64,000 bases of DNA, from NCBI RefSeq assembly GCF_055900595.2, contig NZ_CM148325.1, one strand, 5' to 3'. Positions 19,190-22,744 of this stretch are shown here, one piece after another. Under the pieces are notes generated by a model, which saw nothing but the letters and a program-made list of their open reading frames with translations, had not been told where the DNA came from and ran no database searches. The translations under genes and the position numbers were made by a program. Numbering within the stretch: position 1 is the stretch's first letter; each line of letters opens with the position of its first letter.

Positions 19190-20290
19190 ATGCGAGGGAA
19201 AAAACGCATTGGGTTATTGTTTTTGCTGATAGCGGTTGTGGTTGGTGGCGGCGGGTTATTGCTGGCGCAAAAAGCCTTACATAAAACGTCGGATACAGCA
19301 TTTTGCCTTTCCTGCCACTCGATGAGTAAACCTTTTGAGGAATATCAGGGAACTGTCCACTTTTCGAACCAGAAAGGGATACGTGCGGAATGTGCCGATT
19401 GCCATATTCCAAAGTCAGGGATGGATTATTTATTTGCTAAATTAAAAGCTTCCAAAGATATTTATCATGAATTTGTTAGCGGCAAAATAGACAGTGACGA
19501 TAAGTTCGAAACTCATCGCCAGGAAATGGCCGAAACAGTATGGAAAGAATTAAAAGCAACTGACTCTGCAACGTGCCGTAGTTGCCATTCTTTTGATGCC
19601 ATGGATATTGCCTCGCAAAGTGAATCTGCGCAGAAAATGCATAACAAAGCACAAAAGGGCGGCGAAACCTGTATCGATTGTCATAAAGGCATTGCCCATT
19701 TTCCGCCAGAAATAAAAATGGATGACAACGCGGCGCATGAGCTGGAAAGTCAGACCGCTACTTCAGTGACTAATGGCGCACATATTTATCCTTTCAAAAC
19801 TTCTCGCATAGGCGAGCTGGCTACCGTGAATCCTGGTACCGATCTCACCGTCGTTGATGCCAGTGGCAAACAGCCGATCGTTCTGTTGCAGGGTTATCAA
19901 ATGCAGGGCAGTGAAAACACGCTCTACCTGGCGGCAGGTCAACGGCTGGCGCTAGCCACATTAAGTGAAGAAGGTATCAAGGCGCTCACGGTAAACGGGG
20001 AATGGCAGGCTGACGAATACGGCAATCAATGGCGTCAGGCGTCTTTACAGGGTGCGCTTACCGATCCCGCATTAGCGGACCGTAAACCGCTATGGCAATA
20101 CGCTGAAAAACTTGACGATACCTATTGCGCTGGTTGTCATGCCCCTATTGCCGCCGACCATTACACCGTCAATGCGTGGCCGTCCATTGCCAAAGGAATG
20201 GGGGCACGAACCAGCATGAGCGAAAACGAACTGGACATTTTAACGCGGTATTTCCAGTACAACGCCAAAGATATTACCGAGAAACAGTGA
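19190..20290 (+). CDS. torY: TorY, membrane-anchored pentahaem c-type cytochrome (NapC/NirT family, 366 aa)
   Basis: ORF track; N-terminal TM anchor; five CxxCH motifs (CLSCH, CADCH, CRSCH, CIDCH, CAGCH). Confidence 0.93.
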
Positions 20291-20314
20291 TCCTCGTTGA
20301 TCAGGGAGGAAGTT

Positions 20315-22744
20315 ATGACATTAACAAGACGTGAATTTATTAAACACAGCGGTATTGCCGCTGGGGCGCTGGTGGTGACATCGGCTGCACCGCTACCCGC
20401 ATGGGCAGAAGAGAAGGGGGGCAAAATCCTCACCGCGGGCCGTTGGGGAGCGATGAACGTAGAAGTGAAGGACGGGAAGATTGTTTCTTCGACAGGCGCG
20501 CTGGCGAAAACCATACCGAACTCCTTACAGTCTACGGCGGCGGATCAGGTACATACAACGGCGCGTATTCAGCATCCGATGGTGAGAAAAAGCTATCTCG
20601 ATAATCCACTGCAACCGGCGAAAGGTCGTGGCGAAGATACCTATGTACAGGTGAGCTGGGAACAAGCATTAAAACTTATTCATGAGCAACACGATCGCAT
20701 TCGCAAAGCTAACGGACCATCGGCCATTTTTGCCGGATCTTACGGCTGGCGCTCTTCTGGCGTGTTACATAAAGCGCAAACCTTACTGCAACGTTATATG
20801 AATCTTGCGGGCGGTTATTCAGGGCATAGCGGCGATTATTCAACCGGGGCGGCACAGGTAATCATGCCGCACGTGGTGGGTTCCGTGGAGGTGTATGAAC
20901 AGCAGACCTCCTGGCCACTGATTCTGGAAAACAGTCAGGTGGTGGTGTTGTGGGGGATGAACCCGCTGAATACCTTAAAAATTGCCTGGAGCAGTACCGA
21001 TGAGCAAGGTCTGGAATACTTCCATCAGCTGAAAAAATCTGGCAAACCAGTGATTGCCATTGATCCTATCCGCTCCGAAACCATCGAATTCTTTGGCAAT
21101 AATGCCACCTGGATCGCGCCGAATATGGGCACCGACGTGGCACTGATGTTAGGGATTGCACATACCCTGATGACACAAGGCAAACACGACAAAGTGTTCC
21201 TTGAAAAATACACCACCGGATATCCGCAATTTGAAGAGTACCTCGCAGGTAAGAGCGATAATACGCCGAAGAACGCGGCCTGGGCGGCGGAAATTACTGG
21301 CGTAGCGGAAGCGCAGATAGTCAAACTCGCCGAACTGATGGCGGCGAATCGCACAATGCTGATGGCAGGCTGGGGAATTCAACGCCAGCAATATGGTGAA
21401 CAGAAACACTGGATGCTGGTGACGCTGGCGGCGATGTTAGGGCAGATTGGTACACCGGGCGGCGGGTTTGGTTTCTCTTATCATTACTCAAACGGTGGCA
21501 ACCCGACGCGTGTTGGCGGCGTGCTGCCGGAAATGTCTGCGGCGATTGCCGGACAGGCCAGCGAGGAAGCTGATGATGGCGGAATGACGGCGATTCCTGT
21601 CGCCCGTATTGTTGATGCGCTGGAAAATCCTGGCGGCAAATATCAGCATAACGGTAAAGAACAAACGTATCCGAATATCAAAATGATCTGGTGGGCGGGT
21701 GGCGGTAACTTTACCCATCACCAGGATACCAATCGTCTGATTAAAGCATGGCAGAAACCGGAGATGATCGTCGTTTCTGAATGCTACTGGACCGCAGCTG
21801 CTAAACATGCAGATATCGTATTACCGATCACTACATCGTTTGAGCGCAATGACTTGACGATGACCGGTGATTACAGCAACCAGCATATTGTACCGATGAA
21901 GCAGGCTGTCGCTCCGCAATTTGAAGCGCGTAACGATTTTGATGTGTTTGCCGATCTTGCTGAATTACTCAAACCTGGCGGAAAAGAGATCTATACCGAA
22001 GGTAGAGATGAAATGGCGTGGCTGAAATTTTTCTATGATGCCGCTCAGAAAGGTGCGCGTGCGCAACGCGTGACTATGCCGATGTTTAATGCTTTCTGGC
22101 AGCAAAATAAACTGATCGAAATGCGCCGCAGCGAGAAGAACGAACAGTACGTTCGTTATGCTGATTTCCGCGCCGATCCGGTGAAAAATGCGCTGGGTAC
22201 GCCAAGCGGCAAAATTGAGATCTACTCTAAAACGCTGGAAAAATTTGGCTATAAGGATTGTCCGGCACACCCAACCTGGCTTGCGCCTGATGAGTGGAAG
22301 GGTGCCGCCGACGAGAAACAGTTGCAGCTTCTGACCGCGCATCCGGCACACCGTTTACACAGTCAGCTTAACTATGCTGAGTTGCGTAAAAAATATGCGG
22401 TTGCCGATCGTGAGCCGATCACTATTCACACCGAAGATGCTGCTCGCTTTGGTATTGCGAATGGCGATCTGGTGCGTGTCTGGAACAAACGTGGTCAAAT
22501 CCTGACAGGCGCGGTGGTGACTGACGGGATTAAAAAAGGCGTGGTATGCGTGCATGAAGGTGCATGGCCGGATCTGGAAAATGGCCTGTGTAAAAACGGC
22601 AGTGCGAACGTGTTAACGGCGGATATTCCCAGCTCGCAGCTGGCGAATGCCTGTGCCGGTAACTCTGCGCTGGTGTATATCGAAAAATATACGGGCAATG
22701 CACCGAAGTTAACGGCGTTTGATCAGCCAGCTGTTCAGGCATAA
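20315..22744 (+). CDS. torZ: TorZ (BisZ) periplasmic molybdoenzyme, TMAO/biotin-sulfoxide reductase 2 (809 aa)
   Basis: ORF track 20297..22744 trimmed to ATG 20315 ([21 protein letters not shown]... twin-arginine Tat signal). Confidence 0.94.

Follow-up and report, generated by a model that had tools for sequence, protein, structure and literature searches.

In Escherichia coli, the torCAD operon encodes the pentahaem cytochrome TorC, the TMAO reductase TorA, and the chaperone TorD and is controlled by TorS, TorT, and TorR. A second operon, torYZ (yecK-bisZ), was characterized in strain K-12 by Gon et al. in 2000 and called the “third TMAO reductase” (as cited in PMC5122715, PMC1805755, and PMC10609526); as far as these citing papers relate it, the 2000 description covers the operon, its proteins, and the absence of TorS/TorR control. 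According to the account of that work in PMC5122715, K-12 TorZ is periplasmic, and the same source relates that overexpressed TorYZ allows growth on TMAO, DMSO, and biotin sulfoxide with no requirement for TorD. Expression of torYZ in E. coli has been reported to be low and constant, or constitutive.

We analyzed a stretch of 64,000 nucleotides (the window) from contig NZ_CM148325.1 of NCBI RefSeq assembly GCF_055900595.2, in which the region from 19190 to 22744 very probably (roughly 95%) represents the E. coli torYZ operon, orthologous to that of K-12, with the mechanism and hybrid origin proposed below (Table 1). The gene order cutC-torY-torZ-cmoB, in which torY precedes torZ in the same orientation and cmoB is convergent with torZ, is that annotated in the matching RefSeq genomes of E. 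coli. The two proteins have 360 of 366 (TorY) and 796 of 809 (TorZ) residues identical to their K-12 counterparts (98.4% each), with no gaps or internal stops, and the alignments of both genes to K-12 and to strain BE2-5 are likewise gapless and free of premature stops. An earlier note, made from the letters of this DNA, had read the pair as an intact operon for a pentahaem cytochrome and a Tat-exported molybdoenzyme; synteny, identity to K-12, Pfam and NCBIfam matches, haem motifs, and the Tat signal all agree with that reading, and the frameshift check on the two sets of alignments confirms that the operon is intact. There is no evidence that contradicts the identification as torYZ. The locus shares with K-12 its gene order, protein lengths, 24-nt intergenic spacer, five haem motifs, Tat signal, and active-site residues, and the differences are allelic only: torY differs at 13 nt and torZ at 103 nt (4.2%), which changes 6 and 13 amino acids, respectively, none of them within a motif; the 387-nt spacer ahead of torY has 13 substitutions; and, downstream, the REP pair is inverted and the hairpin duplicated. 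The close spacing of torY and torZ indicates a single transcription unit.

Table 1. Features of the torYZ locus and its flanks (positions in the window)
Feature	Position	Strand	Detail or basis
MicL sRNA (MicL-S, 18802-18881)	18574..18881	+	Rfam RF02654, 370.3 bits (gathering score 56), model positions 1-308 of 308
cutC/MicL intrinsic terminator	18849..18882	+	9-bp GC-rich stem, 9-nt loop, seven-U run
AT-rich noncoding region, presumed torYZ promoter and leader	18882..19189	+	32% GC; Shine-Dalgarno GAGG at 19181-19184
torY, membrane-anchored pentahaem c-type cytochrome	19190..20290	+	366 aa, ATG start; PF03264, TIGR02162
TorY membrane helix, about residues 7-27	19208-19270	+	Hydrophobicity
Haem-binding motif 1, CLSCH, residues 39-43	19304..19318	+	Motif scan
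Haem-binding motif 2, CADCH, residues 68-72	19391..19405	+	Motif scan
Haem-binding motif 3, CRSCH, residues 129-133	19574..19588	+	Motif scan
Haem-binding motif 4, CIDCH, residues 161-165	19670..19684	+	Motif scan
Haem-binding motif 5, CAGCH, residues 313-317	20126..20140	+	Motif scan; TIGR02162 alignment
Homologous-recombination crossover interval	20252..20364	.	Left, BE2-5 type; right, AP025754 type
torY-torZ spacer, 24 nt	20291..20314	+	Shine-Dalgarno GGGAGG at 20304-20309; identical in BE2-5
torZ (formerly bisZ), predicted periplasmic molybdopterin S-/N-oxide reductase	20315..22744	+	809-aa precursor; Pfam/NCBIfam
Tat signal peptide, residues 1-31	20315..20407	+	TIGR01409, 27.1 bits (cut-off 16.7)
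TorZ active-site residues	20741..20842	+	Tyr143, 20741-20743; Trp145, 20747-20749; molybdenum ligand Ser176, 20840-20842
3' region of the operon	22754..22955	+	Hairpin, REP pair, second hairpin with T-run
Palindromic hairpin	22754-22773	+	Spacer alignment
Inverted REP pair	~22774-22925	+	Inverted relative to K-12
Second hairpin copy with T-run, predicted terminator	22926-22955	+	Terminator-like site in scan

Both Pfam and NCBIfam place TorY in the NapC/NirT-TorC family, with residues 7 to 174 forming the tetrahaem NapC/NirT domain (PF03264, 233.7 bits) and a TorC-type C-terminal domain bearing the fifth haem motif. Five CxxCH motifs had been claimed to follow an N-terminal anchor, and the count is exactly five; together they use all ten cysteines of the protein, while among 20,000 shuffles of its residues the maximum was two motifs and 99.2% contained none. 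The anchor corresponds to the only hydrophobic segment (19-residue Kyte-Doolittle maximum of 2.67 at residue 7). Residues 5 to 365 align to positions 12 to 385 of the 387 in the TIGR02162 torC model, but the scores fall below the TorC equivalog cut-offs (309.3 bits versus 478.2 for TIGR02162 and 249.7 versus 455 for NF011606), and TorY is thus a paralogue rather than TorC itself. The protein has no amino acid differences from that of BE2-5, and a search of solved structures with its sequence gave no match at an E value of 0.001 or less.

We place the start of torZ at the ATG at 20315, which follows a GGGAGG Shine-Dalgarno sequence and at which the annotation of RefSeq genomes also begins the gene; a TTG at 20297, a mechanical extension of the open reading frame, was rejected in its favor on these two grounds. 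The protein then begins MTLTRREFIK, with the twin arginines at residues 5 and 6 (nt 20327 to 20332), and continues through a hydrophobic region to an AWA motif (residues 29 to 31) followed by Glu32, giving an AWA-E cleavage motif; the twin-arginine start noted previously (TRREFIK, residues 4 to 10) is recognized by the Tat model above its cut-off. The mature part has the domain order Molybdopterin_N (PF18364), Molybdopterin (PF00384), and Molydop_binding (PF01568), and its first cysteine is at residue 490, leaving no N-terminal iron-sulfur cysteine cluster. With 1,262.8 bits against the bisC_fam model TIGR00509 (cut-off 1,017.55), TorZ falls in the bisC/DorA/TorA family, but it remains under both TorA equivalog cut-offs (860.7 bits versus 909 for NF011682 and 822.1 versus 1,465 for TIGR02164). 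Antisense open reading frames within torYZ are without support, and we regard them as chance occurrences.

The closest solved structures to TorZ are Haemophilus influenzae MtsZ/TorZ (7l5i, 998 bits) and Rhodobacter DorA (1eu1, 836 bits; also 1dmr), both ahead of E. coli TorA (9h4t, 722 bits). The alignment to DorA and MtsZ is colinear over residues 35 to 806, and Y143, W145, and S176 align with Y114, W116, and S147 of the Rhodobacter DMSO reductase 1eu1, so that the serine molybdenum ligand and the Tyr/Trp pair are shared with both enzymes, which differ from TorZ in their host organisms and partner cytochromes. The active-site tyrosine kept in TorZ is missing from E. coli TorA. Under a published criterion that requires the active-site Tyr and Trp to be present together (PMC5122715), these residues would put TorZ in the combined, DorA-like class of S- and N-oxide reductases rather than the strict, TorA-like N-oxide class.

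Compared with torCAD, torYZ has the same overall design, in which a TorC-type cytochrome in the membrane, carrying 4 + 1 haems, supplies a molybdopterin reductase that is exported by Tat. TorY can be aligned from end to end with the TorC model, and TorZ aligns with the TorA models. By their NCBIfam equivalog scores, the torYZ genes are nonetheless paralogues and not orthologues of torCAD, and they also differ from it in having no torD, no adjacent torS, torT, or torR, and no tor boxes. From knowledge of the family and the K-12 literature, we propose that the TorZ cofactor would be loaded in the cytoplasm with no need for TorD and that the folded protein would be exported through Tat, with its signal cut after AWA. 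TorY would oxidize menaquinol at the membrane and pass electrons through its haems to periplasmic TorZ, which would reduce TMAO as well as DMSO and biotin sulfoxide. Regulation would be independent of any local TorS, TorT, or TorR, with the promoter in the AT-rich 308 nt beyond the MicL terminator.

The same genes and electron path might instead serve to reduce sulfoxides in the periplasm, free methionine sulfoxide or biotin sulfoxide for example, when cells face oxidative stress, hypochlorite, or copper, and not to respire TMAO; we consider this possible though rather unlikely. The retained Tyr143/Trp145 pair is a mark of combined S-/N-oxide reductases, and the higher scores of TorZ against MtsZ, a methionine sulfoxide reductase, and DorA than against TorA point the same way, but MtsZ, which prefers methionine sulfoxide, has been placed in a distinct clade of Pasteurellaceae enzymes that is no more than a distant relative of E. 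coli TorZ (PMC5122715). Physiological reports are similarly divided: chromosomal torYZ alone does not suffice for growth on TMAO, while TMAO gave the best anaerobic growth when TorYZ was overexpressed (PMC5122715). In the uropathogenic strain EC958, torZ responded to HOCl (4-fold induction), CuSO4 (6-fold), and paraquat (3-fold), and constitutive TMAO respiration is therefore perhaps an incomplete account of the operon, but our motif scan of the upstream region, a crude one, found no stress-regulator site. We retain TMAO respiration, with DMSO and biotin sulfoxide as further substrates, as the preferred reading.

The spacer upstream of torY (18803 to 19189) had been described as a 390-nt AT-rich region; it is AT rich (35% GC versus 51% for the window), but it measures 387 nt, and its first 79 nt (18803 to 18881) are the 3' end of MicL/MicL-S with its terminator. 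MicL sits in the 3' end and 3' untranslated region of cutC and is a neighbor of the operon rather than a part of it. The cutC/MicL terminator (RNA fold of -17.7 kcal/mol, z = -2.46) was missed by our terminator scan, which limits the loop to 8 nt, and was recognized by reading the sequence; it is predicted to shield torYZ against transcription from cutC and MicL. Only the remaining 308 nt (18882 to 19189) are candidate promoter DNA. This segment is 100% identical to that of strain BE2-5, and its GC fraction of 0.321 falls in the lowest 0.1% of 308-nt windows across the 64 kb. Small open reading frames of at least 20 aa in the upstream spacer are without support, and we regard them as due to chance.

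A scan for consensus sigma-70 promoters found none between 18803 and 19189, the only two matches lying within genes (19582 to 19609 and 22215 to 22244), and Rfam searches at permissive thresholds recovered no cis-regulatory RNA in the leader of torY, a Moco riboswitch included. The upstream region was also scanned, crudely, with motifs for TorR, FNR, CRP, NarL/P, ArcA, CpxR, ModE, CusR, sigma-E, H-NS, Fis, and IHF, and nothing rose convincingly above the expectation from shuffled sequence, a result that fits unregulated low expression without proving it. For the tor box (CTGTTCATAT) there was one match with two mismatches, inside the MicL terminator, where 0.56 would be expected by chance. Annotation transfer placed no TorS-, TorT-, or TorR-like gene and no TorD in the 64-kb window. 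The earlier statement that the window has no adjacent two-component regulator thus stands as far as adjacency goes, but the window does contain two-component proteins elsewhere, namely CheA (1998 to 3962), CheB (8821 to 9870), and CheY (9885 to 10274), which are its only ones, belong to chemotaxis, and lie 9 to 17 kb upstream.

We also considered, as a speculation of low probability, that the low-level, “cryptic” torYZ is a stress-responsive periplasmic sulfoxide reductase whose expression is linked to its neighborhood. Such a link might arise if silencing of the 32%-GC leader by nucleoid proteins were relieved, or through occasional read-through from the sigma-E-driven MicL promoter within cutC.

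It is very improbable that torYZ is instead a cryptic operon in decay, silenced by its AT-rich upstream DNA and on the way to becoming a pseudogene, so that its intactness would have no functional meaning. A review does term torYZ “cryptic”, expression is low, IS1 has inserted upstream of the operon in some strains, the closest torZ allele among complete genomes (Z0117EC0005) bears the nonsense codon Q72*, and about 2% of complete genomes have no contiguous torZ. Against this, 5,425 of the 5,426 complete genomes retain torZ, 5,307 with at least 80% of it in one piece; its catalytic and cofactor motifs are all intact; and its induction under stress has been reported. Moreover, the dN/dS of torZ is only ~0.03 to 0.04 over highly diverged alleles (dS of 0.16 to 0.18), which indicates sustained, strong purifying selection that has kept the gene functional.

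The one unusual feature of this otherwise ordinary and intact operon is its dual ancestry within E. coli: torY and torZ derive from different lineages, which meet at the gene boundary. torY and everything leftward are identical to phylogroup A-type genomes (represented by the phylogroup A-like BE2-5), whereas torZ and everything rightward follow a lineage whose identity to the 5,426 complete RefSeq E. coli genomes does not exceed 98.6%. Mismatches against AP025754 end at 20251 and those against BE2-5 begin at 20365, and around the junction there are 0 mismatches per 500 nt on the matching side and 8 to 33 on the other. We propose that the operon is a natural hybrid in which torY from the phylogroup A-like lineage was joined to torZ from a divergent E. 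coli lineage by homologous recombination in the interval between these two positions. Nothing in this origin suggests altered function.

That the sharp step in divergence at torZ reflects an assembly chimera or another species (Shigella or a cryptic Escherichia clade) is hardly credible, even though the torYZ segment has a best identity of only 97.7% among the 5,426 complete genomes next to a leftmost 18.7 kb that is 100% identical to many genomes, because L003, L005, and L007, three independent drafts of E. coli, have the same junction and sequence (1 to 2 mismatches in 13.7 to 22.4 kb), 12.4 kb on the right are identical to the complete genome AP025754, the identical TorZ protein is on public record on 196 contigs named E. 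coli, and the differences show a transition bias of 2.3:1 and fall in 85% of cases on third positions of codons, the pattern expected of natural alleles. The low best identity had also raised the candidates of another species and of a synthetic or recoded gene, and both were rejected on the 100% identity of the left 18.7 kb to E. coli, the natural-looking third-position differences, the identity of the right part to AP025754, and the recurrence of the whole hybrid in three drafts. Downstream of torZ, the REP pair aligns to that of K-12 with a score of 172 as the reverse complement and 66 in the forward direction, and Rfam matches in this 3' region comprise ES036 (22837 to 22879) and weak hits to naRNA4.

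Since Gon et al. characterized the same operon in 2000, torYZ is already known, and the discovery value of this copy, a normal, functional-looking allele, is very small. Its annotation value is modest and consists of the torZ start at ATG 20315, the assignment of part of the supposed promoter region to the MicL sRNA, and the placement of a lineage-mosaic junction exactly between torY and torZ. A separate speculation, likewise of low probability, is that the junction lies where it does because lineages swap the genes for the cytochrome and the reductase as independent modules. If expression of torYZ is linked to its neighbors, this would explain the reported induction of torZ by copper and HOCl. 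Finally, E. coli shows an unusual degree of polymorphism in torZ (dS up to 0.18) although the gene is under strong constraint, and this combination argues for a real role for a poorly understood enzyme.

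The locus is Escherichia coli torYZ, flanked in annotated matching genomes by argS, yecM, and cutC on the left and by cmoB, cmoA, and yecN on the right. The earlier note had read it as an intact operon for a pentahaem cytochrome and a Tat-exported molybdoenzyme, an observation that our analysis confirmed and an interpretation that it supported. TorY contains exactly five CxxCH motifs (residues 39, 68, 129, 161, and 313), which hold all ten of its cysteines; shuffling its residues 20,000 times never gave more than two. The N-terminal anchor proposed ahead of these motifs corresponds to the single strongly hydrophobic segment, at residues 7 to 27. 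The Pfam NapC/NirT family (PF03264) covers residues 7 to 174 (233.7 bits), and the full-length alignment to the NCBIfam TorC model scores 309 bits, below the equivalog cutoff of 478, as expected for the paralogue TorY. By sequence, TorY is a predicted TorC-type pentahaem cytochrome with a membrane anchor.

TorZ begins with a twin-arginine start, a hydrophobic stretch, and then AWA followed by EE, and the predicted Tat signal passed its model (27.1 bits versus a cutoff of 16.7). The Pfam domains are Molybdopterin_N, Molybdopterin, and Molydop_binding; in NCBIfam, the bisC/DorA/TorA subfamily cutoff is passed (1262.8 versus 1017.55) and the TorA equivalog cutoffs are not reached. No cysteine occurs before residue 490, so an iron-sulfur cluster motif is absent. 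Among solved structures, the best match is Haemophilus influenzae MtsZ/TorZ (7l5i, 998 bits), compared to ~830 bits for Rhodobacter DMSO reductases and 722 bits for E. coli TorA (9h4t). Ser176 aligns with the molybdenum ligand Ser147 of the Rhodobacter enzyme DorA (1eu1), and Tyr143 and Trp145 align with its Tyr114 and Trp116, a pair that separates enzymes reducing both S- and N-oxides from strict N-oxide reductases like TorA (PMC5122715). Unlike E. coli TorA, a strict N-oxide reductase, TorZ has this pair, and by homology it is a predicted molybdopterin reductase of the DorA type bearing a Tat signal.

Family knowledge and the cited K-12 experiments suggest how the two proteins would work together: TorZ would acquire its cofactor in the cytoplasm with no need for TorD, leave through the Tat system, and lose its signal by cleavage after AWA; TorY would draw electrons from the quinol pool and hand them on through its haems to TorZ, which in the periplasm would use them to reduce TMAO, DMSO, and biotin sulfoxide. 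In K-12, the chromosomal operon is expressed too weakly for growth on TMAO, which overexpression does support (PMC5122715). The main rival concerns physiological role and leaves gene identity unaffected: TorYZ is possibly, though doubtfully, a stress-linked sulfoxide reductase. In uropathogenic E. coli, torZ responds to HOCl with 4-fold, to copper with 6-fold, and to paraquat with 3-fold induction (PMC12096835), and sulfoxide substrates would also suit the DorA-like active site.

Coordinates of annotated genes and small RNAs in the window
Feature	Coordinates	Strand	Description
torY	19190-20290	+	ATG start, 366 aa; from ORF list
torZ	20315-22744	+	ATG start, 809 aa; start as annotated in RefSeq genomes
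MicL	18574-18881	+	sigma-E-dependent sRNA, 308 nt; Rfam, 370 bits; inside cutC 3' end
MicL-S	18802-18881	+	with the cutC terminator, fills the first 79 nt of the cutC-torY spacer
C0465	4506-4583	-	sRNA between cheW and tar; Rfam, known K-12 locus
SraC/RyeA and SdsR/RyeB	57028-57172	both	overlapping antisense sRNA pair; Rfam, known K-12 loci

The mechanical ORF list stretched the second ORF back to a TTG at 20297, but the ATG at 20315 is the biologically sensible torZ start; it gives the RefSeq-annotated protein and is correctly spaced from a GGGAGG at 20304 to 20309. The resulting 24-nt spacer is unchanged in other aligned strains, and at this distance the two genes most likely form one transcript. 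Both genes are colinear with those of K-12 (6 amino acid differences in TorY and 13 in TorZ) and of the phylogroup-A-like strain BE2-5 (0 and 8), with no gaps or premature stops, and the operon is therefore intact.

Upstream, the noted AT-rich region of 390 nt at 18803 to 19189 is indeed AT rich (35% GC versus 51% for the window) but is 387 nt long, and by the Rfam match the first 79 nt belong to MicL rather than to a promoter, with coordinates that agree exactly with the published description. The terminator consists of a GC-rich 9-bp hairpin and, after it, seven U (-17.7 kcal/mol). The remaining 308 nt (18882 to 19189) have 32% GC, in the lowest 0.1% of 308-nt windows across the 64 kb. Scans of this interval recovered no consensus sigma-70 promoter, no Rfam cis-regulatory RNA, and no TorR, FNR, NarL/P, ArcA, CpxR, or CusR-like site above chance, each of which is weak evidence. 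In E. coli strain 81 (L012, 724 to 1421) and USDA-ARS-USMARC-51688, an IS1A interrupts the AT-rich cutC-torY spacer ~150 nt before torY begins and could change torYZ expression in those strains.

Annotation transfer over the whole window gave flhC', motAB, cheAW, tar, tap, cheRBYZ, flhBAE, yecT, argS, yecM, cutC, torYZ, and cmoBA through to yebT, with no torD and no TorS/TorT/TorR-like genes within the 64 kb. The claim that no two-component regulator adjoins the operon holds in this sense, with the caveat that the window does carry genes for the two-component proteins of chemotaxis, CheA, CheB, and CheY, 9 to 17 kb upstream. Elsewhere, the ruvC-ruvA interval (30435 to 34127) carries lower-GC (40 to 48%) accessory ORFs. 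One encodes a 505-aa PBP_like_2/PstS-family protein and another, on the minus strand, a YebB C92 amidase; two more, of 349 and 196 aa, match nothing in Pfam or PADLOC, and the longer of these two overlaps the yebB-like gene.

Downstream, the torZ-cmoB spacer (22745 to 22951) is 207 nt, 43 nt longer than the 164 nt of K-12 and BE2-5. It contains a REP pair (Rfam ES036 at 22837 to 22879, with weak naRNA4 matches) in reversed orientation relative to both strains (local alignment score against K-12, 172 for the reverse complement and 66 forward). The palindromic hairpin AGCGCCCGGAAAYGGGCGCT flanks the pair at 22754 to 22773 and 22926 to 22945, and a T-run after the second copy makes a predicted terminator.

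Across 5,426 complete RefSeq E. coli genomes, window positions 1 to 18700 are 100% identical to many, the best identity for the 4.2-kb segment around torYZ is 97.7%, and the right-hand two-thirds (20365 to 64000; past torZ, 22745 to 64000) reaches at most 98.6%. Binned comparison shows a clean switch that places a homologous-recombination junction exactly at the torY/torZ boundary: left of ~20.3 kb the window matches phylogroup-A-type sequence such as BE2-5 (0 to 2 mismatches per 500 nt), and to the right it matches the complete genome AP025754 (0 to 1 per 500 nt) out to 32744. On the left, AP025754 differs from the window by 1 to 7%. The crossover interval (20252 to 20364) starts 39 nt before the end of torY and runs through the spacer to nucleotide 50 of torZ. 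Relative to BE2-5, torY differs at 2 nucleotides and torZ at 89; third codon positions account for 76 of these 89, transitions for 62, and amino acid changes for only 8. The junction is real, since three independent draft assemblies (L003, L005, and L007) contain this hybrid as well, with 1 to 2 mismatches over 13.7 to 22.4 kb and the exact TorZ protein is recorded on 196 contigs labelled E. coli.

Within the species torZ is highly polymorphic (95.6 to 98.4% identity across genomes), with dS up to 0.18 versus K-12. The closest complete-genome allele, in E. coli Z0117EC0005 (L008, 1908 to 4337; 98.4% identical), is a pseudogene with a Q72* nonsense codon, indicating that torZ is occasionally lost. 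Such inactivated copies, along with the ~2% of genomes lacking a contiguous torZ, might suggest a decaying cryptic gene, but strong purifying selection on torZ (dN/dS 0.03 to 0.04) speaks against decay and makes this highly improbable. The MicL overlap, start-codon correction, recombination junction, inverted REP pair, and purifying selection reveal nothing new; they are annotation refinements to an operon that is already known, intact, and in its ordinary state.
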